A stretch of DNA of 64,000 bases from assembly GCA_963760485.1 (NCBI GenBank), contig CAVXDP010000008.1:17209-81208 (forward strand). Reading direction: 5' to 3'. Position 1 is the stretch's first letter; every line of letters begins with the position of its first letter. The notes under the pieces were generated by a model. That model worked only from the letters and a program-made list of their open reading frames with translations, did not search any database and was not told where the DNA came from. Source of the DNA: Candidatus Bathyarchaeota archaeon. Lineage in GTDB: Archaea; Thermoproteota; Bathyarchaeia; 40CM-2-53-6; CAVXDP01. The translations under genes were made by a program, and so were the position numbers. This document shows positions 27,403-44,242 of the stretch, piece after piece.

Positions 27403-27535
27403 GCGAACTTCTGGATAGCTTTTAGGTAGATCTCGAGAGCAGAATGCGTTATCGCGACAGCTAGAGAACCAAGTCTTAAATATTGAACAGTTCGCCATTT
27501 ACTCTATTGCGGACAGATTCTAGAGGAGAAACAAA

Positions 27536-28776
27536 ATGAGTCTAAAAGGAAATGAAACGAGACTTGGTGTAGCAAGGGTCGCCTTGTTCGACCAGCCGAA
27601 ACGGATAATCTTCGCCACAGGAGCTGTGGAACAATTCGTTGGGTCTGAGACGAAACGTCTGGGGGGCAATAAGACACTCTTAGTAACTGACAAGGGTGTG
27701 AAGAAAGCCGGCATGGCTGACACGGTCTTAGATCTCATCAAGAAAGAGAATCTTAGCGTGGATGTATATGATAATCTCACGGCTGAACCAACAGCAGAAA
27801 GCCTGAGAGCCGCAGTTAAGTTCGCTCGGGAAGGCAAGTACGATGCGGTTGTTGGAGTAGGCGGAGGCGCGGTGCATGGACACTGCGAAGATGAGTGCTA
27901 TTTGTCTTACAAACCCGGGAGATCCAATGGTATACGTGAATCCTATGGAGGACAAGAGCAAGTATCCGGCTAAGCCCAAGATACTAATCCCAACCACATC
28001 TGGAACAGGAAGCGAGGCCTCGAACGCCGCCGTAGTAGTTGAAGGATTATACAAAACTTGGGCGGCAAACACCAACGTTTTTGCTGATGTAGCTATCGTT
28101 GATCCATTGATGGCAATTTCATGTCCACCGAAACAGACAGCTGGAAGTGCACTGGATGCTCTAAGCCACAACGTTGAAGGGCTGATTGATAGAGAAGCTA
28201 ATCCTCTGTCGGACGCTCAAGCTCTTGAAGGCTCAAGACTTGTCTTCAAGTACGCAAGAAGAGCTTTCCATGCTGGCGACGATCTAGAGGCCAGATGGAA
28301 CATGTCAGCCGCAGCGACACTCGGCGGAATAGTCATCGCTTATCCATGGATAGGAGGTCCAGCAATCCTTGGGCATTGCATTTCAGAAGCTCTTGGACCA
28401 CGATGGAATGTTCCTCATGGAGCTAGCCTGCGGTGTAGTCCTTCCATACATACTTCAGTTCAACCTGCCATCATGCATCAAGAAACTTGCGTATGTTTCA
28501 AAACAGGTACTGGGAGACGAAGTCTACGGTCTTTCACAACGTGAAGCTGCCTTTGCTTTCATTCATGCTGTGAAGACTCTCATGGAAGACATGGAATTGC
28601 CAACGAACCTCAAGCAATGGAATATTCCAAGCAAAGAACTGGATGAATTCGCCGAGTATATCTTCAAAGATCGCCAACACGTCTATTGTCTTCCAAGATT
28701 TAACCCGAGGAAGCTTACATCAGAAAACACGAAAGAACTGCTGCACTTGATGTATGAGGGAACCCTGCTAGAGTGA
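27536..28776 (+). CDS. iron-containing alcohol dehydrogenase, split by two apparent 1-bp frameshifts
   Basis: Three ORFs in frames 2, 0 and 1 (27536..27973, 27876..28544, 28369..28776). The first ends AVVGVGGGAV and the second begins MDTAKMSAI (consensus GGGSxMDxAK). Downstream come NVPHGAS then ACGVVLPYILQFN (consensus PHGxANAxLLPxVxxFN). Confidence 0.65.
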
Positions 28777-28840: not shown

Positions 28841-29443
28841 CTACGAAACCTGCTCGAATTTTTGAACTGTCAATTTGATGAGTTCCGTTTTCACTTCTTC
28901 CACAGGTCTATTGGAATTTATGGGAATAAGTCCTTCCGTTTTAACGAGTTCAAGATACCTCTCTCGCACCTTCTCTTGAAGATCTAACCTTTCGAGTACA
29001 GTCCTTTTCCGTTTGATTCTGTTCAGACCAACTTCAGGCGGAACATCCAGATAGAATACAATATCTGGTTTCAGAGCAAATTTGTTGATGGTCTTTATCC
29101 AGTTCACGTCAACTCCCTGAGCGCCCTGGTAGGCCAATGAAGAGTACAAGTAACGGTCGCAAACCACAGTCGTGCCCTTGTCGAGGCTTGGAAGGATTTC
29201 CTTCATTAGATGCTCAAATCGATCTGCCGAAAAGAGCAAAGCCTCCACTTCTGGAGGAACCTTTTCAGTGAGAAGCATTGATCGGATAGACTTGCCAACC
29301 GCACCATTCGAAGGTTCAGCAGTATATGCTGCGTCAAAGCCTCTTTGCCGAAGTTCATCAGTGAGAGTTCTTGAGTGAAATGTTTTGCCACACCCGTCGA
29401 TACCCTCCAGAACTATGAAGACTCCCCTTGATCTTGCTCGCAT
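28841..29443 (-). CDS. tmk: thymidylate (dTMP) kinase
   Basis: VLEGIDGCGKTF P-loop; about 200 aa. Confidence 0.8.
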   Translation of the reverse strand: MRARSRGVFIVLEGIDGCGKTFHSRTLTDELRQRGFDAAYTAEPSNGAVGKSIRSMLLTEKVPPEVEALLFSADRFEHLMKEILPSLDKGTTVVCDRYLYSSLAYQGAQGVDVNWIKTINKFALKPDIVFYLDVPPEVGLNRIKRKRTVLERLDLQEKVRERYLELVKTEGLIPINSNRPVEEVKTELIKLTVQKFEQVS

Positions 29444-29598
29444 TGATGTTTAACCCATTCCACACGCTACCAGTACGCACTCCACTAGTTATGAAAGGTC
29501 ATACATAAGTCAGGAACAAAGCAGCCTATTCCAGTAGATCGCAAAGTGGCGTCGACTATTACACAGCCATGATCCTATTGTCAGTGTGTATCTCCTGA

Positions 29599-29669
29599 TG
29601 CGCACACACACAAAATTACCTTGGCCTAACAGCCCGATTTCAAGCGAGCCGCACCAAGGTATACACACA
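29599..29669. repeat. GT/CA-rich palindromic mini-repeat (family copy 1)
   Basis: GCGCACACACACAAAATTACCTTGGCCTAACAGCCCGATTTCAAGCGAGCCGCACCAAGGTATACACACAC. The TACCTTGG...CCAAGGTA arms are flanked by (CA)n. Confidence 0.7.
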
Positions 29670-29856
29670 CGTCAACCGAGGCCCACAAATTGCAGGAAGA
29701 ATCCTCAAAACCTTCTCTATCCACTCGGCAACAATCGATTCACTATCTTATGTCGATTGCTTTGTTCGCTAAGACACGGCGGAATTTGCTAACAAACGCT
29801 TTCAGTTCAATATTAACAAACCGATTAATGAAATATGAGGAGTTCAGGAATAACAA

Positions 29857-31480
29857 TTAATCTGGGGGGATCTGTTTGAATTGTAGTTCCATCGGGATGC
29901 CTTTCATCTTGTGGTATGCACGAGATACGTAGTAAATGATGAATGATGGTGCTATGAACATTGTTATGGTTATCCATATGTAGAATGAGCTTGCGAGACC
30001 GGTCAGGAATGGCAGTAGCATGGAGTAGTCTAGGGCAACACTGATAATGAAAGTCAAGAGCCCAAGTATGAAGAGAACTGGAACTCCGCCAATCTTCTTC
30101 TTGACGATCTCAGGCGATTTCTCGAATATCGCCTTTCCCCTTGATGTGAATGGAAAGACCATGCCGACAACTCCAACTATCGCCCATGCAAAGAACCATG
30201 AAAGTATCGTGTAAGCGATCCATGATGCTTGATAGATGAATATGTACAGGAAGATCTCTCCGATTATCAATCCAAGCAATACGGCTGCCCATGGTGATCC
30301 TCGTTTGTCTGTTTTAGCGAAGAAGGTTGGGAGGACTCTGTCGAAAGAGTACGCGAAGATATTTCGAACCGGTCCGAAGGCGGCTCCCATACCTGCGGCG
30401 AACCATGTGATTGCAGCCATGGCGCAAGAAAGGACCGCGTAGCCAGCATTAGGGTTCGCGTAGACAAGCATAAAACTTGGCACAGGCATAATGGTTCCCA
30501 ATGGCCACCCCTGCCAAGTTCCAAATCCTGCGCCACCCGGCGCGAAATATGATGCTCCGGAGCCCAGAATTCTCCGCTGAACCCATAGTATGCAAGGGAA
30601 TAGAAAAGCTCCCAGAATATGAATAGGAGTATTAATGCTCCCAGCATAGCTCGCTATAGCTGCCTTTCTTATCTCCTTCACTTCGCCCATTATATTCGCG
30701 GTGTAGGTTGATCCTAGAGTATTCAGAGCCACGAAGGTGATTCCAGCGCCGAGAGACACATTCATGTCGTATAATCCGACAGGCCATTTGGCAGCCTTTG
30801 CTGCATCCAAAACCGCTTGGTAAGTAGTACCCGACATCATGTTGAATCTTTCAATAAACGTCGGAAGCCCTCCGCCTGTAAGGACTCCAATGTCAAAGAT
30901 CACGAGGGAAAGGACACCGGAAATCACTCCAATCCAAGAAAGAATCATGGCCGACTCTTGCTCCTCTCCACATGATTAGGAATTCCACGACTACGAGAAG
31001 ACCACCTACTAGCATCATTCCAATAGGAGCGTCTATTGAGTTGGCGAGGAGCCAATACGGGTGGGTGCTAGCCAACTTTCCAAGCTCGGAAATTGCGATG
31101 GTTCTCAGAACATTGTTGATACCAAATCCGACAGCGAGGTATGTGAGGCTACCTGCCCATGAAGCTCCGATTGTGGTTAGAACCCAACCTGCAGAGAATC
31201 CCCATGCTGGAGAGAGTATGCGGCTCCCCCAAATGTACTCGCCTCCCGAGCGTGGCATAGCTATCGAGAACCAGATGTAGAGAAGGGCTGGAATGAACAT
31301 CAGTAGTACAGCCGGGATGACGGCGATCGGTACATTCACACCCGGATAAGCCTGATGTGTCCAGAGAAGAAGAATGTTGCAATTAGCAATGCCCGGCGTC
31401 ATGAATGCAAAGGCTAAGGCATCCCATGGTCCTATGACTCGCGTGAGCCCAGATGTTTTTCTGATGAAAACTTCCGTCAA
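29857..31480 (-). CDS. APC-superfamily permease paralogue, split by an apparent frameshift near 30945-30955
   Basis: ORFs 30893..31480 and 29857..30948 lie in different frames; both are multi-TM. Ends ...MELQFKQIPPD like the paralogue at 21125. Confidence 0.6.
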
Positions 31481-31568
31481 AGAATGCCAACCTTCCCCAC
31501 AGATGCGTAGACAGCTAGATACACTAGAGCGATATTTAATACTTCACTGTACAAATATGTGCATTAAC

Positions 31569-31763
31569 CTATGCACCCGGCGCCTTCCATACCCCCCTTT
31601 TGATGAGCTTCATCGTGATTTCATCAGCGAGTTTTGCTGAATCCGCATGTTTACCTGGGGGTTTTTCAATCGCTAGGTTCTTCGGCCAGATTGGTTCCTC
31701 GTAAATGAGCTTGTATATTTCTGTTCGCAGGTCTCTTATCCAGTTTCCATTCTTGGCGTTCAT
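31569..31763 (-). CDS. small hypothetical protein (64 aa)
   Basis: ORF only; lies between the permease and the CN-hydrolase. Confidence 0.2.
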   Translation of the reverse strand: MNAKNGNWIRDLRTEIYKLIYEEPIWPKNLAIEKPPGKHADSAKLADEITMKLIKRGVWKAPGA

Positions 31764-31805
31764 TCTGTACTCTCTTAGGGCATCTATGTAGAATGGAGCT
31801 GCGGC

Positions 31806-32672
31806 TCAGCCAGAGCCATATGATGGTGCTCTTCCCATGATCTGTCCATGATAATCTACGATCATTGAGCTTCCGCCTGACACGTTTACGGAGTCTTTCG
31901 AGTTCACCGTCAGGTAGTATGGTCCGAGGTTAGGAGCAATGAGGTAGCAGGTGTTGTCTAGGGCTCTTGCTCTATTCTGAATTTCAAACCATCCCCTGCC
32001 TATCAATGGTTCAGCCTCAGCACCCCGATAAATTATCTCTGCACCATTCATAGCCAATCCCCTTGCAGTTTCAGGATACTCAGCGTCTTGGCATATCATT
32101 GTCCCGATTCGCCCGATCTCCGTGTCAGTGACTGGGAAAAAGGAGTCCAGCTTGTAGCCATATTTGGCTATCCACTGGTCCCAGACGTCATGCGGCGTTG
32201 TTGTGTGTTCTTTTATGTAGACCTGAAGTTTATGATACCTGTGAATCACCTTCCCATTTGGATTTACTATGAAGGCGACGTTGAAGTAACGGTTGGGAAA
32301 ATCAGGATTCTTCGCTCTACTCTGAGCGATTACATACGTCTTGAACTCTTTTGCCATCTGACCAAGTTTATCAGTCTCTTCACCGGGGATGTCTATCGCA
32401 ATCTTCTCGTAGTATTCCAAGTGATCCATGTCGAAGACTTCATCAGTAAATCCCTGCAAGGCACCCTCCGGCAATGCGATGAGTCTTACAGGCAACTCGA
32501 CCTCGGTCAGCCAAACAGCTGCGCTCATCGCATCATGAATATGCTCCAAGTTTACGGAGATTTCCTTTCGCTTCTCGACACCACGAAAAGATGTTTGGAG
32601 AGCCACCGCCATGTATGGTTGTACCATACCACACATCCCATCAACAACGAGAAGCAGGCTACATATTAGCAT
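31806..32672 (-). CDS. carbon-nitrogen hydrolase (nitrilase superfamily) protein
   Basis: ...RLIALPEGALQG... and ...GTMICQDAEYPE... (catalytic Glu and Cys regions). Confidence 0.65.
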   Translation of the reverse strand: MLICSLLLVVDGMCGMVQPYMAVALQTSFRGVEKRKEISVNLEHIHDAMSAAVWLTEVELPVRLIALPEGALQGFTDEVFDMDHLEYYEKIAIDIPGEETDKLGQMAKEFKTYVIAQSRAKNPDFPNRYFNVAFIVNPNGKVIHRYHKLQVYIKEHTTTPHDVWDQWIAKYGYKLDSFFPVTDTEIGRIGTMICQDAEYPETARGLAMNGAEIIYRGAEAEPLIGRGWFEIQNRARALDNTCYLIAPNLGPYYLTVNSKDSVNVSGGSSMIVDYHGQIMGRAPSYGSG

Positions 32673-32823
32673 TCACAGTTGGTAGTTTCTATCTGCAAGA
32701 TGCTGTGCTTTACCTTGATTTTCACAGTGTACTTCACGTTCCTGTCAATTCGAAAGATAGCGAGCCCGGTAGTATAGTAAAGAGGGGGTTTGGGGGATTC
32801 CTCCCCCGATGAAGTCCTAATTA

Positions 32824-32912
32824 TTTGTGTGCTTATCCATTGGTGCGACCGTTCAAAATCCTACCGTCATTTTTCGTTGAATTGTGTGTGTAGAGATGGC
32901 CTTGGTGCAGCC
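32824..32912. repeat. GT/CA-rich mini-repeat (family copy 2)
   Basis: TTTGTGTGCTTATCCATTGGTGCGACCG ... GAATTGTGTGTGTAGAGATGGCCTTGGTGCAGCC. Confidence 0.55.
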
Positions 32913-33052
32913 AGCTTAAGACTAGACTATTTAGTATGGATGGCTTCCCTAAAGGAGCTGTCAATTATTCTTTCAGAACTTTGGAATCATAATGCCGTGT
33001 CGTGCGGCCAAACGAATCCGGCTGCCACATGCATTCTTTTTTTCAGTCATGG

Positions 33053-33874
33053 CTAGGCTCCACCGAGAGTGATTATCAGGTCTGTGATAAAACCCGCGAA
33101 CAATCCAACGAAGATCCCAATCATCAGAACATCATTTGTGCTTTGCCTCCTTCCTGAATTGTACATCAACAACGAGACGAAAACCAATGCGCCACCAGCA
33201 ACTGCTAGGAAAAAGATGTACAGAGAAGCCGAGGTCCATAGGCTACCTAGTAGAGTTCCAATAAATGTCGGGCCACCACCTACTAGGCCTGCCAAGACAA
33301 TGAAACGAACACTCGGTCGTTTTGAAAGCCCTGTTAGTGGACTAGCTATTCCGAAGCCTTCTGTGGCATTATGTGCTGCGAATCCAATCACCAAAATTAT
33401 CGCTAACCCCATTGCTCCTGACACATACGACTGGCCTATTGCAAGTCCTTCGCTAAAGTTGTGAGCTCCGATGCCCACTGCAATCATCATTGAGAGCCTG
33501 TAAGCGTTGACCTGCTTCTGCTGTCCAGAGTCACTACTGCCACCCGCCACGCCGGTTTCCTTCATATATCGAGCTCCGTACCAAGTCAACCCCAGAAGCC
33601 CTACCGCCAGCCCTCCGAACATGGCTAGAAGGTCAAGCAGCGCATCTTCCACAGGTGACTTCCCCACAAAAGCACTGCTCGCGGCATCCGCAGCGGATTG
33701 CCAAGCATGACTAAGCACGTCGACAATGAGAAATATTAGAATACCAACTGCAAACGCGTTGAGGAATCCTTTCTTTCTTGGACTAACGCCTTGAGCTACG
33801 GCAAGCGGTAACCCGAGAAAGATTGTGAGGCCAGCAAACGCTCCAAGGAGAAGGAGCTGAGGATAATCGATCAA
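33053..33874 (-). CDS. ZIP-family divalent metal transporter
   Basis: Two HNxxEG motifs (AHNFSEGLAIGQS, AHNATEGFGIAS); multi-TM. Confidence 0.7.
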   Translation of the reverse strand: MIDYPQLLLLGAFAGLTIFLGLPLAVAQGVSPRKKGFLNAFAVGILIFLIVDVLSHAWQSAADAASSAFVGKSPVEDALLDLLAMFGGLAVGLLGLTWYGARYMKETGVAGGSSDSGQQKQVNAYRLSMMIAVGIGAHNFSEGLAIGQSYVSGAMGLAIILVIGFAAHNATEGFGIASPLTGLSKRPSVRFIVLAGLVGGGPTFIGTLLGSLWTSASLYIFFLAVAGGALVFVSLLMYNSGRRQSTNDVLMIGIFVGLFAGFITDLIITLGGA

Positions 33875-33984
33875 TCCACGTAATCTCGCTTGCTAAGAGC
33901 ATATCATATGTCATAATTAACCTTGATCGACAGTATGTCGGTGTCTGAAAGGCCTAGCTGTCGGAATCTGCTCAAGACTATTGG

Positions 33985-34136
33985 GCCAAGGTAGAATTGT
34001 GTGTATATACCTTGGTGCGCGCCGCTTGAAATCGGGCTGTTAGGCCAAGGTAATTTTGTGTGTACCTCCTGGTGCGACCGCCCTAAGACCAAACCATGAT
34101 TCTTGAAATGTGTGTGCGCACCAAGGTATACCACCA
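33985..34136. repeat. GT/CA-rich mini-repeats (family copies 3-4, compound)
   Basis: CCAAGGTAGAATTGTGTGTATATACCTTGGTGCGCGCCGCTTGAAATCGGGCTGTTAGGCCAAGGTAATTTTGTGTGTACCTCCTGGTGCGACCG ... GAAATGTGTGTGCGCACCAAGGTATACCACCACC. The central 45 bp is near-identical to the reverse complement of copy 1. Confidence 0.7.
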
Positions 34137-34342
34137 CCAAACCCTCTTTAGCGCTTAGGGCTTACACGATTAAACCAATATCTTTATATGATGGTAAACT
34201 CATATGGATATAGGTGAATAAGCGAACGTTGGGTGAATGAAATGATAACAAGAAAAGTAACAGCGGGCATCCGCGATTTTGCTTACTGGAAGAACGCCTG
34301 ACGTCTGCAAATCCTGTATGAGAATTGATGTTGGTAAATGGA

Positions 34343-34486
34343 ATGGGTCGAATCAGTGTGGAACTCTCTGATGAGCTGGAAAAGAAGTTAAGGTTCAAAA
34401 CGGTGGAGAGATTTGGCGGGAAAAAGGGCGACCTATCAAGATCTGTTGAAGAAGCCGTAAAGACATGGGTTGCCAAAGAAAAATAA
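34343..34486 (+). CDS. ribbon-helix-helix (CopG/Arc-like) small DNA-binding protein, 47 aa (below the ORF-track size cutoff)
   Basis: MGRISVELSDELEKKLRFKTVERFGGKKGDLSRSVEEAVKTWVAKEK has the beta-strand + two-helix RHH pattern. The overlapping antisense 104-aa ORF 34162..34476 is low-complexity. Confidence 0.45.
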   Translation: MGRISVELSDELEKKLRFKTVERFGGKKGDLSRSVEEAVKTWVAKEK

Positions 34487-34741
34487 ATGAAGAAAAAATC
34501 TGCTTGAATAGCTCAAGGTAAGTAGGGGAATTAGCTCAGTTGCGAAAAGGCTCCCCTCTTATAGTATGAACGTGTATTCTTCTCTTTCTCAGTCTGTTGT
34601 CAATCCTAATTGGAGACAGGTTCGTGAATATGGGAGCTTACCACGTTTCGACAACTTACGAACCTAGACCCCGAGCTACTATGAGTTTGTCTTTGGTAGA
34701 TTCTCAACTATGTGTGGGAAGTCAGCTGCGGTTTGCGTTCG

Positions 34742-35884
34742 TTATTGATTTTGGTCAAAGACCCAAGATGCTCTGCTAAGGATCTCTCCAATTGGCAAGT
34801 GCTGTGTGCAAAGCTTCTCGCATCTTCTGCATCTTATGCATAGTTTGGCCCGGTTTTCTGGAGTGATCTGTTCCCAGTATTTTCTCTTGATCTCATTGTC
34901 TCTTCCTTTTGCAAGGTATTCGTTGTACAGGGATAGTATCTGAGGTATGTTCACTCCTTGAGGACAGGGCATGCAATATCTGCACCCAGTGCAACCTAGT
35001 AATCCTATTTCATTGTATTTCTTGGCGACGCGATCGAAGATTTTCAGTTCTTTCTGAGTTAGGGAGTTGGGAATAGAAGTGTTGGCGGTGTCCAAGTTCT
35101 CTTTTACCTGTTCTAATGTGCTCATGCCGCTGAGAACAACGGATACCTCTGGGTGATTCCAAACCCATTGCAGAGCCAGCTTCGCGGGCTTGGAATGGAT
35201 GCCTGCTTTGTCCCAAATAGCCTGAACCGCTTTTGGTGGTGTGGCGGCCAAGTTTCCGCCAGCTATTGGCTCCATAACGATGATTGGAAGCCCCTTAGAA
35301 GCTGCGTACTTGAGCCCTCTTCTGCCGGCTTGGTACTCTGTGTCAACGTAGTTGTATTGGATCTGGCAGAAAGTCCAGTCGTAGCTGTCTACGATTTTTT
35401 TGAACAAAGGGTATTCGTCATGAAAACTGAAGCCTAGATAACCTATCTTTCCTTGTTGTATCTTTCTCTCAGCCCAGTCGAAAACGCCCAGTCGCCTCAG
35501 TTTCGGCCAAACCTCTTTTTCAAGACCGTGGAGGAGGTAAAAGTCAATTTGGTCAACCTGGAGTCTGCGGAGCTGGATTCTTAGGAACTTGTTCATATCT
35601 CGCTGCGAGTTCACGAGCCAAGTTGGCATCTTGGTAGCTACACGCACTTTTTCTCGATAGCCATTGTCCAAAGCCTTTCCGACCAAGACCTCGCTATAGC
35701 CCTTGTGATACGGGTAGGCCGTGTCCACATAGTTGACACCATGATCGATGGCATACCGTATCATGCGAATCGCTTTTGCCTCATCGATTTTCGCATCATC
35801 CGCTCCTTTGATAGGTAATCTCATTGCCCCTAATCCCAGAGCTGATACGTTCCAGTCTAGTTTCCCAAACTTCCTGTACCTCAT
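34742..35884 (-). CDS. aldo/keto reductase with C-terminal 4Fe-4S ferredoxin domain (COG1453-like)
   Basis: AKR N-terminal (GAMRL...DTAYPYHKG...) plus a C-terminal CTGCRYCMPCP / CIRCRRCEKLC. Confidence 0.7.
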   Translation of the reverse strand: MRYRKFGKLDWNVSALGLGAMRLPIKGADDAKIDEAKAIRMIRYAIDHGVNYVDTAYPYHKGYSEVLVGKALDNGYREKVRVATKMPTWLVNSQRDMNKFLRIQLRRLQVDQIDFYLLHGLEKEVWPKLRRLGVFDWAERKIQQGKIGYLGFSFHDEYPLFKKIVDSYDWTFCQIQYNYVDTEYQAGRRGLKYAASKGLPIIVMEPIAGGNLAATPPKAVQAIWDKAGIHSKPAKLALQWVWNHPEVSVVLSGMSTLEQVKENLDTANTSIPNSLTQKELKIFDRVAKKYNEIGLLGCTGCRYCMPCPQGVNIPQILSLYNEYLAKGRDNEIKRKYWEQITPENRAKLCIRCRRCEKLCTQHLPIGEILSRASWVFDQNQ

Positions 35885-36310
35885 GAGAAGTCACTTTCTC
35901 CTGCGCAGCCGAGAGATCACATTCGTGGCGACAAGTATCTAGATTTGATTGAACAAGAATTCTTTGTTACTCACTCTTTTCAAGCTGACTCACGCCTTGT
36001 AAGCTCCATGGGTCATCTTTCCTGCAACAACCAAATTACCTTCCGTAATTTCCAAGAGAGAGCAGTCCATGGATGCATAGTTCAAATCCCATCCCGCCCG
36101 CCACAAAACTTTCCGGTTTTGATAAGATAGAATCATTTTGAGTGTTTCCATTCGCAGTACAGTCTTCACTGAAGCGTGACTAGGTACTGGCACAAAACGT
36201 GAAACCAGAAAACGTGGAATCAGTAAGACTACTATATCGTACGGCAAGCAGCGAATGCGGACGCAGAAGCGTCTTTGAATCTTTAGGAAGAATTATCCAA
36301 AAGCTTTCAC

Positions 36311-36347
36311 AATTGTGTGTGTGCGCACCAAAAGATACTACACACAC
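36311..36347. repeat. GT/CA-rich mini-repeat (family copy 5)
   Basis: AATTGTGTGTGTGCGCACCAAAAGATACTACACACAC. Confidence 0.55.
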
Positions 36348-36627
36348 TTCTATCATGGCCTGATCTCTATAGGAAGAAAGTCTAGGTCCTTTGCGTAGGG
36401 TTGCAGCCGCTCGCGTCGTCGGAAGTTCCTTATTCGAGCGTTAGTGCTATGTTGTATCTGAGAGGTGACTAATGTATGGCAAGCAAGAGAAGTAGGGGAG
36501 CTAAGAAAGCGTGGACGACTGCTAGAGATAACAAGGTGGCGGAAGCACGCAAGAAGAAGAAGGACCGCAAAGCCGCCTATTCCACGTATCACTAGGAACA
36601 CTGTTCTATTAATGAGAACGCACCCAT

Positions 36628-36685
36628 GGCGAAGTGGTCCTAGGTTTCAGGTGCTCGAACTGCCTGAAAGGTTAGGCCACTCGCC
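36628..36685 (+). ncRNA. 58-nt extended imperfect hairpin (candidate structured RNA / regulatory element)
   Basis: GGCGAAGTGGTCCTAGG-TTTCAGG-tgctcgaactg-CCTGAAA-GGTTAGGCCACTCGCC has a 7-bp perfect inner stem plus a roughly 14-bp outer stem. It lies in a 340-bp stretch with no credible CDS. Confidence 0.25.
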
Positions 36686-36762
36686 GTTTGGACCAAAAGA
36701 GTAGTAGGAGTTCGCTTCAGTTAAGAAACATTTTAGAAACATTCCTTCATAAGACTCAAACA

Positions 36763-37176
36763 ATGAAAACGACAATATCCATTAAGAGTTCACTCATAGC
36801 TCCTTGTGGAATGAATTGCGGAATCTGTATGGCATATCTTAGAGAGAAAAAGAGTTGCCCTGGTTGTAGAGGAAGCAATGATAACAAATCATTTAGTTGC
36901 GTCAATTGCAGAATCAGAAACTGTGATGAGTTAAAGAATCATAATATGACATTTTGCCTTGAATGTGAAAAACTGCCCTGTGTGAGATTAAGAACATTAG
37001 ACAAAAGATATCGAACCAAATACAATATGAGTATGATTGAAAACCTTGAAACTATCAAAACATTTGGAATAAGAAAATTTGTCAAAAATGAAAAAGTTCG
37101 ATGGACTTGCTTGAAATGTGGAGGGATAATTTGTGTTCATAGAGGATTCTGCTTTAGTTGTGGAGAACAGAGCTAG
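36763..37176 (+). CDS. DUF3795-like Cys-rich protein
   Basis: Multiple CxxC pairs: APCGMNCGICMAY, CPGCRG, CVNCRIRNC, CLECEKLPC, CLKCGG, CFSCG. The locally AT-rich gene likely starts at the ATG at 36763; the longest ORF starts at 36688. Confidence 0.55.
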   Translation: MKTTISIKSSLIAPCGMNCGICMAYLREKKSCPGCRGSNDNKSFSCVNCRIRNCDELKNHNMTFCLECEKLPCVRLRTLDKRYRTKYNMSMIENLETIKTFGIRKFVKNEKVRWTCLKCGGIICVHRGFCFSCGEQS

Positions 37177-37210
37177 CTAGCCTTCAATAGCATTCTTAGG
37201 ACACACAGAG

Positions 37211-37239
37211 AAGGAGGGGGCCTGGGGGATTCCTCCCCA
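37211..37239. repeat. GC hairpin motif GAGGGGG-N3-TGGGGGATTCCTCCCC (copy B)
   Basis: AAGGAGGGGGCCTGGGGGATTCCTCCCCACC; a near-identical motif sits at 32781-32807. Confidence 0.6.
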
Positions 37240-37278
37240 CCATTAACTACTATCAACACCTTTCTCGTCGTCGCTTCA

Positions 37279-37300
37279 GGTGGTGCGCACACACACAATT
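37279..37300. repeat. GT/CA-rich mini-repeat (family copy 6, inverted orientation)
   Basis: GGTGGTGCGCACACACACAATT is the reverse complement of AATTGTGTGTGTGCGCACCACC. Confidence 0.5.
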
Positions 37301-37456
37301 CAACCATTCGTTTAGGAATCGAAAATCTGAAATCTGTCGATAGACGCTAGTGTCAGGTAGCTTTCCGAGATTCGCTGTTACCAGAGGGTAAATGGTGCAC
37401 CTGCAAGAAGTGATAAATCGTCTAGACGCCAAAACGTTGGCCGCAGGCTGAAGTAA

Positions 37457-37951
37457 ATGGCAGAGAAATCCCGCTCAAGACGTAGATTTCTGAAGCATAC
37501 TGCCATGAGTTCGGTTGTTGCGATTGTGGGTTTTGCTGTCGCTGGATATGTTCTTCTAGGCCATCAGTCGCAGGAATGTTTTGGAATATACCTCATAGAG
37601 AACAACAAACTGGTGATATCGGACGAAGACATTGTATGGTACAATAGAACTTCTCATGAAATCAGACTTACCGAATTAGGAGTGAAGAAGATTGAGGAAT
37701 TGCAGGTGTCTGTATATGGCAACCCCTTTGTTGTAAAGATTGGCGGAGAAAAAATCTACAATGGATTATTTGTTACCCCTATCTCATCTGTATCCCAGCC
37801 ACCTTCAGAAGTAGTAATAGAGACTGTAGTTCAGAATAATACCATAAAGATACAGATGGGTTATCCTCCTTCACAATCTGGAGCTGAAGATCCAAGAAAC
37901 AATTCTAAGATATTTGACCATTTTCAAAGTATCAACAAATTAGTTCAGTGA
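37457..37951 (+). CDS. Tat-signal secreted hypothetical protein
   Basis: N-terminus SRRRFLKHTAMSSVVAIVGFAVAG is a twin-arginine motif plus h-region. Confidence 0.5.
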   Translation: MAEKSRSRRRFLKHTAMSSVVAIVGFAVAGYVLLGHQSQECFGIYLIENNKLVISDEDIVWYNRTSHEIRLTELGVKKIEELQVSVYGNPFVVKIGGEKIYNGLFVTPISSVSQPPSEVVIETVVQNNTIKIQMGYPPSQSGAEDPRNNSKIFDHFQSINKLVQ

Positions 37952-37969
37952 ACAAACATAATGGGTTAG

Positions 37970-38010
37970 ATGTGTGTGTATACCTTGGTGTGGCGCTAGA
38001 TTTGGACCAC
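37970..38010. repeat. GT/CA-rich mini-repeat (family copy 7)
   Basis: GATGTGTGTGTATACCTTGGTGTGGCGCTAGATTTGGACCAC is similar to the arm + core of copy 3. Confidence 0.5.
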
Positions 38011-38052
38011 TGATTGGCTTTCCCGCAGACACGAACAGAAAAGTTGCTTGAA

Positions 38053-38430
38053 CTAATCCAAGAGTTCAATCCAGATACCGTCTGGATCTTTGATGTAGAC
38101 CTCGGTTCCCTTAGCCTCAGATGGTTTGACAGCAACGTCAACTCCTTTCTTCACAAGCTCTACGTAAGCATGCTTCACATTTCTCACAGAAAAAGCGAGA
38201 TGATCAAGTTCTTCGCCTCTTGTATACTTCTTGTAGAACCTGCTGCCTTTCGGGTACCAGTTGAGTTCTAGTCTCTGTGGTGAACCAGGGCTCTTGAGGT
38301 GTACGTATCGTCCGCCATGAGGCATCTTACCGCGACTAATCTTTTTCATGCCTAAGACGTCCACGTAGAACCTTTCTGAACGATTCAGATCCCTTACTCT
38401 AATCCCTGTGTAGGTGAACCGGAATTTCAT
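38053..38430 (-). CDS. glyoxalase/VOC-family protein
   Basis: 125 aa with VOC-like N-terminus (GIRVRDLNRSERFYVDVLGM) and C-terminus (DPDGIWIELLD). Confidence 0.65.
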   Translation of the reverse strand: MKFRFTYTGIRVRDLNRSERFYVDVLGMKKISRGKMPHGGRYVHLKSPGSPQRLELNWYPKGSRFYKKYTRGEELDHLAFSVRNVKHAYVELVKKGVDVAVKPSEAKGTEVYIKDPDGIWIELLD

Positions 38431-38543
38431 TTGTATCCAAAGAATTGAGTTGTCAACAAAACCATTTACGTTCTTCGCCAGTACTGGTCAGGCCATGGTA
38501 GGTAGAGTATGCTGGCACTGCTATAACAACGAGTACAACATCT

Positions 38544-38981
38544 ATGGGCTCCACGAGTGCTCAAACAACTACTTCAACTACTGTTGTCACCACAGTGACC
38601 TATCAAGGAACAGAGTTGAAACTGCAAGTCACGAGTAATTCAACTATTTCAGGCTTGAGTTTCAACAAGAATACACGATTGATGAACTTCACAGTGAGTG
38701 GCCGCGATGGAACAAATGGTTTCTGCAGCGTTCACATATCGAAGGAGCTGTTAGATGGAAAACCAATTGTTCTACTGGATGGAAACCAAATACAAGCTGG
38801 TGTAAGTCAAGACGAAGCCAACTACTATGTCTATTTCACATACAATCATAGCAGTCACAATGTAGCGATTGGGGGATCTAACTCCATACCTGAATTTCTA
38901 TATGCTTTGACTACGTTGCTGTTGGTCTTGAGTGTTCTTCTGTTTGCAACGAAGACAAAACGTAGATATTGTCAAATGTAA
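38544..38981 (+). CDS. PEF-CTERM domain protein (Thr-rich, no detectable N-terminal signal peptide in-frame)
   Basis: C-terminus ...SNSIPEFLYALTTLLLVLSVLLFATKTKRRYCQM has a PEF motif + TM + basic tail. The N-terminus MGSTSAQTTTSTTVVTTV lacks a hydrophobic signal, and an in-frame stop lies upstream at 38499-38501. Confidence 0.5.
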   Translation: MGSTSAQTTTSTTVVTTVTYQGTELKLQVTSNSTISGLSFNKNTRLMNFTVSGRDGTNGFCSVHISKELLDGKPIVLLDGNQIQAGVSQDEANYYVYFTYNHSSHNVAIGGSNSIPEFLYALTTLLLVLSVLLFATKTKRRYCQM

Positions 38982-39002
38982 TGACACAACGTTGTTGTAG
39001 GA

Positions 39003-39045
39003 GAGAGGGGAATCGGAGGGTCAGGGGTGCAATCCTTCCCCTCTC
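39003..39045 (+). terminator. strong hairpin (10-bp perfect stem GAGAGGGGAA/TTCCCCTCTC, 23-nt loop) 20 nt after the PEF-CTERM gene
   Basis: Read directly from the sequence. It could be a terminator or RNA-stability element; there is no T-run. Confidence 0.35.
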
Positions 39046-39348
39046 AGGTTGGCAAGAAAAACTATTCCAGTGCCTAACCTACGAACATGTATCATCAAAT
39101 CAATCTTAAACAAGAGACATAACCGAAACTAAACGACTTTCACTGGGCACGTAATTATTCCCATTCTATTCATACTGATTATGTAACCCTTGCGAGACTC
39201 GTTCTGAAGTTTCTAATTGTGATACCTTGGCAGATTCTAGGATGGATCCATGTTAGACGAGCCACAAAAGCCGGAAGTGTTCAACATTAGCTGTATTGGT
39301 TAGCCACAGCACCCAGAATTTGAGAACCCAGGTTTAACTTACATCGCC

Positions 39349-39894
39349 CTATGACCGTCTACCCTGATAGGTTGTGCCATAGCTTTCCAATGATATTATC
39401 TCTTCCAACTTTTTTCTTGGTCTTACAGTATGGACGATCCTAGCCAACGGGTCGATCTTGTCACATGAGTATCCTAGAGCGATCAGCGCAACAATCTCGT
39501 ATTCATCAGGAAGCATCAGTATCTTGCGAATATCTTCATTGTTGAAGCTTCCAATCCAACATGTTCCAAGCGCCAAGGCTGTTGCTGCCAGGACCATGTG
39601 CTCAAGGGCAATCGTAGTATCTACAGCATACCATTTGGGAGAGGTTTTCTTGTTTCCACAGCCAACAATTACCACAGGTGATTCAGCCAAGAACTTTCCA
39701 TACTTACATGCTTTAGCAATGCTAACCCGCTTATCTTTGTCTCTTACGATGATGAAGTGCCAAGGCTGTAGATTAGCAGCCGAAGGCGCCAACCTAGCAG
39801 CTTCCAACACCTTGACAAGAACGTCTTCGGGTATCGGTGTCGATACGTAAGACCTTACCGACTTTCTTTGTCTGATAGTATCGAAAATATCCAC
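39349..39894 (-). CDS. nitroreductase-family protein
   Basis: N-terminus RKSVRSY...APSAANLQPW is the classic NAD(P)H nitroreductase motif. Confidence 0.75.
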   Translation of the reverse strand: MDIFDTIRQRKSVRSYVSTPIPEDVLVKVLEAARLAPSAANLQPWHFIIVRDKDKRVSIAKACKYGKFLAESPVVIVGCGNKKTSPKWYAVDTTIALEHMVLAATALALGTCWIGSFNNEDIRKILMLPDEYEIVALIALGYSCDKIDPLARIVHTVRPRKKLEEIISLESYGTTYQGRRS

Positions 39895-39904
39895 TTAATT
39901 CCCT

Positions 39905-40291
39905 CTATTCTGCCCGTTCTATTTCGATTTTCTCTCCACTTTTCACTTTGGTTAGATATTTTGTGTCTCCGATGATTCTTCCAAACACGTTTACCGAGCT
40001 GGCTGCCTTTGGTTGACTTCCTGTACTGGCTGGAGTGGTTCCGAAGAATATGCAGAAACAGTTTCCGGGAGGCCAGTAAGCCAAATCTCCAATGTTTACT
40101 TCTTCTTGGCTCTTTTCTTCTGGTACTTTTACAGGGATGCTGAAGTAGATTTCTTCTCCCCATCTGTTAACCATTCCTTTGATTGGCAACGCTTTCCAGA
40201 TGGCTTCAGCAGTCTTCGGGTTTTTTTCGGACATAATCTCCGCAGGAATGTCGCCTATTGATTGAGTCTTGATTCTGATCTTCCTGTCCAT
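39905..40291 (-). CDS. hypothetical protein (possibly cyclophilin-like fold family)
   Basis: 128-aa ORF; GDLAYWPPGNCFCIFFG resembles cyclophilin-like DUF proteins, but this is uncertain. Confidence 0.35.
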   Translation of the reverse strand: MDRKIRIKTQSIGDIPAEIMSEKNPKTAEAIWKALPIKGMVNRWGEEIYFSIPVKVPEEKSQEEVNIGDLAYWPPGNCFCIFFGTTPASTGSQPKAASSVNVFGRIIGDTKYLTKVKSGEKIEIERAE

Positions 40292-40454
40292 TTTGAATCA
40301 ATCTCGCGTTTGAACAATACCTCGGAAGCGTTTAGCACACTGCCGTAAAATCTCTCTTATGATGCCCTTAAAGGATCTGGCGTAGCATAAAAGAGAAGGA
40401 TCGATCTGGAAAGAAGTAGTTATCCAATTGCATGCCCATTGTATGCGTTAAGTA

Positions 40455-41264
40455 TTGCAGGCACAGCTAGGATGCTGCTGTGTAACCTTGATGAGCGATC
40501 TAATCGGTTTGGTGGGCCTCTTCTTTGCAGGCATAGTCGCAGGCGCTATCAATTCCGTGGCTGGTGGTGGCACGCTCATCTCTTTTCCTTCACTTGTAGC
40601 GTTTGGCCAACCAGAGATAATCTCTAATGCAACAAACACAGCGGCATTGTGGCCTGGGTCGCTTAGCAGCGCTCTCAGTTATCGAAAGGACACATCGGTC
40701 CAGCGCAGTTTGGTTATCACTCTTGCTATCCCCAGTCTGATTGGCGGTCTTCTTGGTGCCATGATTCTAGTTGTCACGCCTGCGGCGGCTTTCAAACGTG
40801 TCGTCCCATTCTTGGTTCTCTTTGCTACTTTGGTATTTGCGTTACGCGAGCTTCTTACTCGAAGATTTGGCAGTATTTCTACTGGCGCAGAGTGTGTGAC
40901 AACTGTTGGGCGAATCTGGGGTTTCATCTTTCAACTGTTCGTCGCTACTTACGGCGGCTACTTTGGGGCAGGCATAGGTATCCTCATGTTGGGATCTTTG
41001 AGTCTGATGGGTCTGCGTGATATTCACAAGATAAACGCAATCAAGACTCTGCTCGCCGCTATCATCAATGTAACTGCATTCGTTTTCTTTGCACTCGAAG
41101 GATTGGTAGTCTGGCCTTTGATGATTCTTATGGCGACAGGTTCTATTATTGGTGGCTACGGAGGCGCACGGTTAGCTAAACGGGTGAAACCTCGTCTTCT
41201 CTACTTGTTCGTGGTTGCCGTAGGCCTGCTGGTTTCAGGCTGGCTCTTTATCAGATCGTTCTAG
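40455..41264 (+). CDS. TSUP/TauE-SafE family membrane exporter (DUF81)
   Basis: 269 aa, 7-8 TM with two repeated halves; GAINSVAGGGT and GGYFGAGIGILM motifs. Confidence 0.75.
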   Translation: MQAQLGCCCVTLMSDLIGLVGLFFAGIVAGAINSVAGGGTLISFPSLVAFGQPEIISNATNTAALWPGSLSSALSYRKDTSVQRSLVITLAIPSLIGGLLGAMILVVTPAAAFKRVVPFLVLFATLVFALRELLTRRFGSISTGAECVTTVGRIWGFIFQLFVATYGGYFGAGIGILMLGSLSLMGLRDIHKINAIKTLLAAIINVTAFVFFALEGLVVWPLMILMATGSIIGGYGGARLAKRVKPRLLYLFVVAVGLLVSGWLFIRSF

Positions 41265-41436
41265 CTGACCACTGAGTTTAGTCACCAGAAAACTGAAGAA
41301 GGATTTGGTAGCGGGGGATGTTACTGGGTCCCGTTTGAAGTGTGTGTATGCCCTAATGCGCTCTCTCTGGGGGTTCAGGGCCATGCAAAATCGATCTCCA
41401 CTTGCAAGAAGCTTTTGCATACGCCTTGGTTCGATG

Positions 41437-42617
41437 TCTTCGCTGGGTAGTGTTTTCTGTCGAATAGGCTACTGGTCATCTGCATGATACAAAGGCCTAT
41501 CCAATGAATCTCTTATAAGGATCCTCATTAGAAGGCCTTTGTATCTCTTCTAAGCATCCTCATTGGAAGGCCTTTGTATCTCTTCTAAGCATCCTCATTG
41601 GAAGGCCTTTGTATCTCTTCTAAGCGATCCTCATTGGAAGGCCTTTATATCTCTTCTAAGCATCCTCATTGGAAGAGCCTTTGTATCTCTTCTAAGCATC
41701 CCATGGATGCTTAGAAGAGCATATGAAGGCCTTCCAAGCATCAAGGATCCTTAGAAGGCCTTTGTATACTATAAGCCTTCCAATGAATGCCTTGGATGCT
41801 TAGAAGAGCATATTAGAAGGCCTTCCAATGAATACAAAGGATCCTTTAGAAGAGCCTTCATATGCCTTCTAAGAATCCTCATTGGAAGGCCTTTGTATCT
41901 CTTCGAAGAGATCCTCATTGGAAGGCCTTTGTATCTCTTCAAAGGATCCTCATTGGAAGGCCTATTGTATCTCTTCGAAGCATCCTCAATGGAAGGCCTT
42001 TGAAGAGATACATAAGCCTTCCTCAATGAAAGGATGCTTAGAAGAGATACAGAGGCCTTCCAAAGAATACATGGATGCTTAGAAGAGATACAAAGGCCTT
42101 CCAATGAATACAAAGGATGCTTAGAAGAGATACAAAGGCCTTCCAAAGAATACAAAGGATGCTTAGAAGAGATACAAAGGCCTTCCAATGAATACAAAGG
42201 ATGCTTAGAAGAGATACAAAGGCCTTCCAATGAATACAATGGATGCTTAGAAGAGATACAAAGGCCTTCCAATGAATACAAAGGATGCTTAGAAGAGATA
42301 CAAAGGCCTTCCAATGATACAAAGGATGCTTAGAAGAGATACAAAGGCCTTCCAATGAATACAATGGATGCTTAGAAGAGATACAAAGCCTTCCAATGGA
42401 ATACAAAGGATGCTTAGAAGAGATACAAAGGCCTTCCAATGAATACAAAGGATGCTTAGAAGAGATACAAAGGCCTTCCAATGAATACAAAGGATGCTTA
42501 GAAGAGATACAAAGCCTTCCAATGAATACAAAGGATGCTTAGAAGAGATACAGAAGGCCTTTGTATCATGCAGATGACCGGTAGCCTATTCGACAGAAAA
42601 CACTACCCAGCGAAGAC
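41437..42617. repeat. ~1.2-kb compound palindrome of tandem repeats
   Basis: The left array (about 41521-41700) holds about 5 tandem 35-bp units TCATTGGAAGGCCTTTGTATCTCTTCTAAGCATCC. The right array (about 42030-42555) holds about 13 tandem 42-bp units GGATGCTTAGAAGAGATACAAAGGCCTTCCAATGAATACAAA. These are the reverse complement of the left unit plus an ATACAAA insertion. A scrambled orientation-switching centre lies between them, and the whole structure is bracketed by a 60-bp inverted repeat (41437-41496 vs 42556-42617, 1 mismatch). ORFs inside it (MEGLCISSKHPLYS...) are repeat artefacts. Confidence 0.9.
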
Positions 42618-42753
42618 ACTAGACGCCTTTTCTCCTACATAATCAGAAACCTTTCCCCTTACAAGAGAAATGTTATACTGGCCAGGCCTGATAGTCTAGG
42701 TTAGTCTTTGGAAGTGCCTATTCTTCCAAATCTCTTCAGGGACCTGAGATAAC

Positions 42754-44043: not shown

Positions 44044-44242
44044 TCAAGTTCGCAAGGATCAACCGGCAACACTGCTTAACAGACCGATAATGACTAGGCT
44101 GAATGATAAGTTATGTCTGTCTCACAAAAATTACCCTAAAAACAACCTCGGCGACATAATCCAAGATTTTCTTTGAACGACAAAATGTCCAAGCCTTCTG
44201 CAATCGTTACGGCCTTGAAGAGAAGAAAAATCCTTGGCCCTA

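Follow-up and report, generated by a model that had tools for sequence, protein, structure and literature searches.

Short GT/CA-rich repeats in a Bathyarchaeota accessory island are probably junctions in an array of casposon-family elements

What are the short GT/CA-rich repeats that lie between the accessory genes of contig CAVXDP010000008.1 from a Candidatus Bathyarchaeota archaeon (assembly GCA_963760485.1)? We analyzed a 64-kb stretch of this contig (positions 17,209 to 81,208, hereafter the window; coordinates count from its first nucleotide). A first-pass annotation of it had described a family of 35-150-bp pieces resembling miniature inverted-repeat transposable elements (MITEs) or repetitive extragenic palindromes (REPs), or alternatively an operator or terminator shared by a local regulon. 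Our analysis indicates that the mini-repeats are probably the junctions of a tandem array of transposable elements of the casposon family. Casposons are few, are known as large elements that carry cas1 and polB, the gene for a family-B DNA polymerase (PolB), and have been proposed as the ancestor of CRISPR adaptation.

The repeats were examined by reading the sequence and by motif counts. Every copy listed in the first-pass annotation lies where it had been placed, a further copy at 29584-29612 had been merged into the first one, and the weak copy noted near 41338 is recognizable in degenerate form. Exact GTGTGTGT 8-mers occur eight times in the window (1.4 expected), all between 29604 and 41347, and none of 100 shuffles of the window matched this count. 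The exact core ACCTTGGTGCG is present at 29650 (-), 34009 (+) and 34117 (-), with a one-mismatch copy at 37982. When two mismatches were allowed, the number of cores was not above chance; the short core by itself is weak evidence, and significance comes from the core in combination with the GT tracts. Read on the GT strand, the repeats follow a single grammar: (GT)3-5, then 6-7 variable nt (often ATACCT), then TGGTGCG, with either (CA)n (short form) or an 18-nt tRNA 3'-end mimic (long form) coming next. We call the long unit a pad, and the 13-14-nt CGCA-CCA-N6-7, TGGTGCG on the other strand, the core. Short forms span ~30-35 nt, with (CA)n directly after TGGTGCG (29584-29612, 34110-34139, 36315-36347 and 37274-37297); in pads, ~35-40 nt follow TGGTGCG before another GT tract begins. 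Orientations are mixed within the window. The inverted resemblance of the first and third copies, previously put at about 90% over 45 bp, is real and had been understated: 29606-29670 and 33999-34063 match over 65 nt at 94% identity, and the landing pad at 29603-29670 is one arm of this inverted repeat. The supposed internal inverted repeat TACCTTGG...CCAAGGTA turned out not to be one motif, as its halves are the 13-14-nt core and the sub-terminal element end GGCCAAGGTAGAATT(GT)n.

The intergenic position of the repeats, the ability of the (GT)n/(CA)n arms to pair around a 13-nt loop and the oligo-T runs that precede some copies in relatives would all suit regulatory elements, whether operators of a local regulon (bound, for example, by a ribbon-helix-helix (RHH) protein), terminators or small RNA genes. 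Single copies, however, fold no better than shuffled sequences (z from -0.2 to -1.6), and the value for the compound junction at 33999-34139 (z=-4.0) is due only to its inverted cores. Junctions occur upstream of genes, downstream of genes, between divergent genes and between convergent genes, that is, in every orientation context. In a scan of the window neither terminator-like nor promoter-like sites were enriched, and none coincided with a junction. No Rfam match and no tRNA gene (ARAGORN) was found in the 64 kb, and dozens of other genomes have these elements next to unrelated genes. These results speak against the operator or terminator previously proposed and against a small RNA, and we regard a regulatory role as most improbable. 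The RHH gene of the region is cargo of one cassette, and its product is not a plausible binder of all copies.

The repeats are confined to a segment that appears to have been inserted. In sister-species contigs (L007-L014) the thymidylate kinase gene tmk and an HD-domain gene are adjacent, divergent and 200-280 bp apart, and BLASTN comparison with these contigs joins window position 29492 to 42662 (matching segments 28872-29492 on the tmk side and 42662-44051 in the HD gene region). Since the two genes are neighbors there, ~29493-42661 is best read as a 13.2-kb insertion between them, so that the accessory stretch is borne out and is larger than first described. The window thymidylate kinase has a 100%-identical counterpart on the conspecific contig L006 and ~72% relatives on long contigs. 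No junctions were found in the remaining 51 kb of the window (8-mer scan and a profile of element ends) or in ~100 kb of syntenic sister-species core. The island cargo comprises genes for a permease, a CN-hydrolase, a ZIP transporter, an RHH protein, an aldo/keto reductase (AKR), a DUF3795 protein, a glyoxalase, a nitroreductase, a cyclophilin-like protein and a TauE protein (Pfam). An exact-protein look-up of the AKR found nothing.

Comparison with related contigs showed that the cassettes between the repeats move, and that homology ends at the repeat tips. Window 37291-38007 recurs in L084 (417-1139) at 97.2% identity, in surroundings that are unrelated on either side; the homology breaks where a core meets (AC)n and where (GT)n meets a core. 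L004 and L018 have in common a 2.6-kb two-cassette module (99.5% identity) with both breaks at (GT)n|core. On the tmk side, contig L006 matches the window at ~99% identity; it diverges exactly after (CA)5, at 29612, beyond which it carries other elements and a glycosyltransferase gene. Contig L029 is 95-99% identical to window 32552-34631 and lacks exactly one 59-nt pad, the first of the compound junction. Cassettes have thus been exchanged between contexts precisely at the tips, and the presence/absence polymorphism expected of mobile DNA is seen in all three conspecific contigs (L006, L029 and L084). The breaks fit elements with (CA)n...(GT)n termini and not random recombination within repeats.

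These comparisons bear on the proposal that the 35-150-bp pieces are themselves mobile units that insert between genes in the manner of MITEs or REP doublets (REPINs), cassettes being shuffled by homologous recombination. Several observations agree with it: the inverted 65-nt unit, the 59-nt unit absent from L029, matching variant arms around a spacer in L033, perfect 29-nt inverted copies around a gene in L027, and a ~70-nt element in L006 that consists of ends only, L006 and L033 being examples of the few miniature elements of this kind. Free insertion, however, predicts copies beyond the island, and none was seen in the 51 kb of core window or the ~100 kb of sister core. Furthermore, homology breaks at the tips and not anywhere within the repeats, the ~50-nt ends beside the tips belong to gene cassettes and Cas1 elements, and repeats of 30-60 nt at ~70-90% identity are poor substrates for homologous recombination. 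The footprints of mobile DNA recognized in the first-pass annotation therefore stand; autonomous mini-repeats do not, since the pieces are composite junctions and it is the cassettes that move. We consider this explanation unlikely, although it is partly compatible with casposon-family junctions, as the pads may be miniature casposase substrates.

The family of junctions is widespread in relatives, as the search beyond the window revealed, and its grammar was seen again in about 60 metagenome contigs of Bathyarchaeia. A 19-mer scan of representative genomes gave five loci, four of them true members: three metagenome-assembled genomes (MAGs) of Bathyarchaeota/Thermoproteota and L004, which is labelled Acidiferrales and holds several element copies. 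A degenerate scan of metagenomes gave 84 loci, mostly from sediment and peat, 55 of which were classed as short or long form by an automatic test and several more recognized as members by eye. Among 80 non-redundant long units the consensus after TGGTGCG is GCCG-NNNN-RATTTGAACC, with conservation ending sharply at +18. The reverse strand reads GGTTCAAATY-N4-CGGC-CGCA-CCA, which corresponds to tRNA positions 52-76 with exact spacing and the CCA end; mimic and core in tRNA sense are GGTTCAAATC-N4-CGGC-CGCACCAAGGTATA. Because the 5' strand of the T-stem is missing, the long units mimic a tRNA 3' end and are not tRNAs, and split-tRNA halves were dropped as a candidate on the same ground. The primer-binding site of a retroelement, in which TGG... 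would pair with a tRNA 3' end, was likewise dropped: there is no reverse transcriptase, and terminal inverted repeats (TIRs) plus target-site duplications (TSDs) explain the tRNA complement. Tandem pads with a ~57-60-nt period occur in L074, L015 and L018, and neighboring pads differ at all variable positions, for which reason a ~32-nt duplication of mimic plus core was rejected as the origin of pads; pads that lie side by side did not arise by recent copying from one another. A CRISPR array was also rejected, as the units are non-identical and the 'spacers' are related to one another. Some tips are (CGA)n rather than (CA)n (L017, L022, L100 at ~3815 and L104 at ~2940), and CGT-rich tracts (CGTCGTCGTT) are common just inside the right ends in one sub-lineage.

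What lies at complete copies of such elements? Locus L099 holds an 8.4-kb Cas1 element with (CA)4...(GT)n termini and ~50-nt inverted repeats. Its left end reads CACACACAC-GAAAATCC...CTGTTAGGGGATGAATCCCCTAAAACCC and its right end GGGTTTTAGGGAATTTCCTACCCTAACAG...GTAGAA-GTGTGTGT, followed by one pad and then (GT)5G. All of this directly adjoins a genuine tRNA-Gly(CCC) gene at its CCA end, and the element is flanked on both sides by the perfect 14-nt CAACAAGTGGTGCG (reverse complement CGCACCACTTGTTG), which is the reverse complement of the tRNA ...CGCA-CCA plus a 7-nt trailer. On L003, a complete Bathyarchaeota chromosome, a 1.16-kb Cas1-less element, which holds a UbiA gene and a single pad, lies between perfect copies of the 14-nt GGTTCTTTGGTGCG; the right copy is the 3' end of tRNA-Gly(GCC). 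The array of L093 starts at the CCA of tRNA-Gly(TCC), and further perfect duplication pairs were found in L022 and L047. Insertion at a tRNA 3' end was seen in L099, L003 and L093, in each case at tRNA-Gly; the window has only mimics of tRNA 3' ends. Casposons are reported to duplicate 14 bp, beginning with 5'-CGCA, at the extreme 3' end of tRNA genes, to require ~30 bp of upstream tRNA, to form tandem arrays that share one duplication, and to leave solo TIRs (PMC6977970, PMC4779613).

To compare the ends in the window with those of such elements, a profile hidden Markov model (TIR HMM) was built from ~55-nt element ends, including both L099 ends and no window sequences. It matched the window only inside the island, always pointing outward, with E values from 6e-9 to 1e-2. 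The window ends are thus homologous to the ends of Cas1 elements. With outward matches on either side, the permease/CN-hydrolase segment 29663-32831 is a cassette whose inverted ends can be recognized. The inner hairpin motif of such ends accounts for the GGGGGATTCCTCCCC repeats at 32779-32806 and 37211-37238.

Fragments of tRNA 3' ends are also typical of att cores, and a row of 0.7-3-kb cassettes, each with a single gene and a site at either boundary, recalls the arrays of integrons, which have been reported in archaeal MAGs with canonical attC sites (PMC9668308). The junctions could on this basis be tyrosine-recombinase sites, either of an integron-like array with attC-like hairpins or of a leftover att stack from serial tRNA integration, and L019 does have a tyrosine integrase next to a tRNA-Gly. 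No integrase, however, was found in the island or recurring beside arrays (Pfam, clustering of open reading frames (ORFs)), and reading of the sequence did not reveal the GTTRRRY/RYYYAAC core. Neither the cassettes nor the sites keep to one orientation. Copies differ in their tRNA-like part, when att copies of one tRNA should match, and conservative recombination does not make inverted repeats and 14-nt direct duplications. We judge recombinase sites to be very unlikely. As a separate observation, the integrase ORF of L019 (11923-12903) abuts the 5' side of tRNA-Gly(GCC), where L003 has different DNA (~3087), and mobile elements of two kinds therefore seem to use this tRNA gene. The tRNA-Leu gene of Methanosarcina mazei is likewise reported to serve two kinds.

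Clustering of the ORFs of the motif-selected loci showed Cas1 to be the most recurrent family, with traces in L098, L030, L027/L051, L085, L082 and L034. Cas1 is encoded in the related elements L098-L101, L104, L107 and L108, and more than 1000 homologs were found in metagenomes at E<1e-30. The Cas1 protein P0123 aligned with the M. mazei casposase (PDB 6OPM) over residues 4-401 against 21-411 (E=1.6e-74), and scored at most 86 bits against CRISPR Cas1 proteins. Among solved structures, a casposase is thus by far the closest to the associated Cas1. Six casposase neighborhoods were then fetched without regard to the junction motif, and in five of the six junctions were present within a few kb of the casposase gene. 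None of the six has cas2, cas4 or effector genes directly beside Cas1, and their cargo is variable and defence-like. One of the six, L106 (1-11215), carries a casposase-like Cas1 (404 aa) at a distance of ~3 kb from a separate type III CRISPR-Cas locus, which encodes a 323-aa Cas1 of its own.

Two further proteins recur in these elements. An ORF of ~220-270 aa without a Pfam family, located immediately upstream, overlaps the start of the casposase gene in most neighborhoods (L099 9258-10004, L100 5741-6556, L104 9336-10004, L107 9252-10004 and others), with marginal hints of a winged-helix/PadR-like regulator (PHROG E=0.001; PDB E~0.6). A conserved 313-aa protein (L099 8003-8944, L107 7976-8917, L098 2703-3638, L104 7334-8161) has 72 homologs. 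In sequence searches of Pfam, NCBIfam, PHROGs and PDB, neither partner gave more than marginal matches, and it was by fold search only that the 313-aa protein was identified. The structural model of the 313-aa protein (pLDDT 87, pTM 0.86) gave fold matches of which the best 50 in PDB were all MCM subunits (E down to 5e-10, TM score up to 0.57), and the protein has Walker A-like and Walker B-like motifs. These findings suggest a mini-MCM-like ATPase with the AAA+ core fold of MCM helicases. The L099 element, as delimited by its duplication, has no PolB domain and no ORF above 500 aa; judging from the model, the casposase elements seem to carry the mini-MCM instead of PolB.

Taken together, these results are consistent with junctions of up to three parts. 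The first would be the outermost TIR tips, 5'-CACACAC...GTGTGTG-3', continued by ~50 nt inward that include the GGGGnnTTCCnCCCC hairpin motif. The second would be the 13-14-nt core CGCA-CCA-N6-7, the target that a casposase would cut with a 14-bp stagger and so duplicate. The third, in long forms, would be the 18-nt mimic of tRNA positions 52-72 (GGTTCAAATY-N4-CGGC) directly upstream of CGCA, which may supply the context in which a casposase recognizes a tRNA 3' end. Autonomous relatives would encode the casposase and the window cassettes would be mobilized in trans; repeated insertion into existing cores and pads could then have stacked the permease/CN-hydrolase, ZIP, RHH/AKR, DUF3795 and other cassettes in the tmk-HD spacer. 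We infer that this casposase acts on these ends, which it would integrate with a 14-bp stagger, and a casposase is presumably present elsewhere in the source genome. A pad would couple a minimal end with a minimal target of the casposase and travel at one end of a unit (L099, L003 and the window), which would explain why arrays grow away from tRNA genes. Pads may function as portable targets.

Several points weigh against casposon-family junctions. The window contains no casposase gene or fragment (tblastn), and its units can only be non-autonomous derivatives, since they lack Cas1. The island is not located at a tRNA gene, and the original target in the tmk-HD spacer cannot be reconstructed, the sister species being only ~75% identical. 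Casposase locus L106 is without junctions, and in L100 the Cas1 element has a degenerate right end. Target duplications in the window are present as candidates and are ambiguous. The pair 29650-29663 / 34117-34130, identical at 14/14 positions, is the commonest core variant, and its identity could be due to chance. A rival staggered pair, A(T/C)CTCCTG(A/G)TGCG at 29590-29602 / 34064-34076, is 11/13 identical (12/13 against L006) and flanks an element ended by the 65-nt inverted pads. The cores around individual window cassettes are mostly non-identical, and in the 29663-32831 and L027 cassettes both tips abut the N6-7 side of inverted cores, a geometry that simple target duplication does not give and that calls for secondary rearrangement or an unusual mode of integration. 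Finally, pads, with a ~25-nt terminus like the lineage ends plus mimic and core, cannot be generated by a 14-bp duplication alone.

The coordinates of the junctions, ends and cargo are collected in Table 1. Within cassette 1, the permease is frameshifted into two overlapping ORFs (29857-31480) and the CN-hydrolase (31569-32672) has an in-frame TGA near 31803; both cargo genes look inactivated on reading of the frames. The small, very basic ORF of the DUF3795 cassette (79 aa, without a Pfam family) has 90% nucleotide identity to L046 5349-5508 and L073 2460-2619, where it is flanked by junction variants in which G-runs and C-runs replace (GT)n and (CA)n. At 41435-42618, a large palindromic repeat block forms the right edge of the island. 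Its 64-nt arms, 98% complementary, enclose a 35-nt unit repeated ~14 times in tandem (41508-42002) and, in opposite orientation, a 42-nt unit repeated ~13.5 times (41998-42561). It matched no fetched locus; an iteron-like or origin-like element and a protein-binding array are possibilities. Outside the island, the Fe-alcohol-dehydrogenase region 27500-28750 is ~77% identical to conspecific L006, with flanks at ~99%. The gene is split in the window (ORFs 27536-27973 and 27876-28544) and intact in L006 (412 aa), reflecting either allele replacement or a decaying pseudogene.

Table 1. Features of the island in window coordinates; cassettes, ends, mimics and duplications are predicted
Feature	Position	Strand	Description
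Accessory island	29493-42661		Between tmk (28841-29443, -) and HD-domain gene (42754-44043, +)
Short junction S1	29584-29612	+	(GT)3 - ATCTCCTGATGCG - (CA)5; homology with conspecific contig L006 stops at 29612
Putative landing pad, tRNA sense	29603-29670	+	(CA)5 - linker AAATTACCTTGGCCTAACA - mimic GCCCGATTTCAAGCGAG(C) - core CGCACCAAGGTAT - (AC)4
Candidate target-site duplication	29650-29663 / 34117-34130	+	CGCACCAAGGTATA, 14/14; TSD geometry
Left TIR of cassette 1	29663-29717	+	(AC)4 - GTCAACCGAGGCCCACAAATTGCAGGAAGAATCCTCAAAACC; TIR HMM 29717-29663 (-), E=5.8e-9
Cassette 1 cargo	29857-32672	-	Amino-acid permease (29857-30948 + 30893-31480), CN-hydrolase (31806-32672); Pfam, ORF list
Right TIR of cassette 1	32782-32831	+	GGGGGTTTGGGGGATTCCTCCCCC hairpin motif ... 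TTATT-TGTGTG; TIR HMM 32782-32823 (+), E=1.5e-6
Pad, then second core	32832-32912	+	Core CTTATCCATTGGTGCG + mimic ACCGTTCAAAATCCTACC + linker + (GT)4; then core AGAGATGGCCTTGGTGCA
ZIP metal transporter cargo	33053-33874	-	Pfam
Right-end tip of ZIP cassette	33977-34004	+	GGCCAAGGTAGAATT(GT)3; TIR HMM E=8.7e-4
Compound junction	33999-34139	+	Tandem pads 33999-34057, 34058-34109; then (GT)3G - CGCACCAAGGTATA - CCACCACC
RHH + AKR cargo	34328-35884		RHH 34328-34487 (+); aldo/keto reductase with 4Fe-4S domain 34742-35884 (-); Pfam
Short junction	36315-36347	+	(GT)4G - CGCACCAAAAGATACT - (AC)4
DUF3795 cassette	36340-37297	+	Small basic ORF 36465-36704, DUF3795 36688-37176 (Pfam); weak TIR matches at both ends
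Left end of DUF3795 cassette	36377-36340	-	TIR HMM E=2.9e-3
Right end of DUF3795 cassette	37214-37238	+	TIR HMM E=9.5e-3
Right junction of DUF3795 cassette	37274-37297	+	CTTCAGGTGGTGCG-(CA)5
Mobile cassette	37288-37979	+	(CA)5-AATTC ... ORF 37457-37951 (164 aa, without Pfam family) ... TTAGAT-(GT)4
Core + tRNA mimic	37980-38010	+	Core ATACCTTGGTGTG + mimic GCGCTAGATTTGGACCAC
Degenerate junction	41340-41360	+	(GT)4 - ATGCCCTAATGCG

These findings suggest that an uncultured archaeal class harbors casposase-type elements in abundance, that such elements can dispense with PolB, and that their gene-cassette derivatives build accessory islands in a manner comparable to that of bacterial integrons. 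This offers a testable mechanism for accessory-gene flux in Bathyarchaeia. The portable tRNA-mimic targets and short periodic arrays provide material on how a transposon target might become leader plus repeat, and the grammar (GT)n-N6-7-TGGTGCG-[(CA)n or GCCG-N4-RATTTGAACC] is a cheap annotation marker for such islands. A bolder proposal is that the elements form an undescribed, large Bathyarchaeia lineage of casposons, with a mini-MCM for PolB, portable tRNA-mimic pads at the ends and, as a consequence, integron-like arrays that the casposase and its Cas1-less single-gene derivatives would assemble anywhere in the chromosome, and that tandem pads are a living intermediate between casposon insertion and CRISPR array; their unit would then comprise a leader-like tRNA mimic, a 14-nt duplicated core and a transposon-end insert. 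We put this forward tentatively and hold it to be rather doubtful as a whole. Bathyarchaeial or non-autonomous casposons were not described in the literature searched, whose coverage is incomplete and gives weak evidence of novelty.

Among known systems, the family 2 casposons of M. mazei and Aciduliprofundum boonei are similar in having a Cas1-homolog transposase with a C-terminus bearing a helix-turn-helix, in inserting at tRNA 3' ends (here in L099 and L003) with a 14-bp duplication from 5'-CGCA and a need for upstream tRNA, and in their TIRs, solo ends and tandem arrays sharing one duplication. They differ in that the L099 element lacks a family-B DNA polymerase and has the conserved mini-MCM-like ATPase instead, tips here are (CA)n or (CGA)n, and the target is tRNA-Gly with the encoded CCA inside the duplication. 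Abundant Cas1-less single-gene derivatives, portable tRNA-mimic pads and the Bathyarchaeia host also set the present elements apart. By the literature definition (cas1 plus polB) the window units are not casposons, as neither gene is present; Pfam detected no PolB domain in the island. MITEs and solo-TIR remnants are, like the short forms and pads, short non-coding derivatives of transposon ends in the same size class that depend on a transposase in trans, whereas the pieces described here are mostly two-element junctions (tip, core and tip) and ordinary cellular genes are the cargo of the non-autonomous units.

Integron cassette arrays and integrase-less attC clusters share the single-gene accessory cassettes punctuated by a short structured site, the occurrence of the same cassettes in different contexts of different genomes, and the frequent absence of an enzyme gene from the array. 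In contrast to them, a Cas1 transposase is implicated here, inverted repeats and target duplications are present, orientation is mixed and there is no attC core. As in CRISPR arrays, integration by a Cas1-family protein would duplicate a target of fixed length beside a leader-like sequence, and tandem pads have a ~57-60-nt period; the duplicated segment, however, is 14 nt rather than 25-50 nt, the units are non-identical, the inserts are related transposon-end sequence, and no cas2 or effector gene is present. The accumulation of Tn7-type elements is similar in that repeated site-specific insertion at a conserved gene end builds an island. The transposase there is a different one, and in the arrays described here the target would be regenerated, or carried, by the elements themselves.

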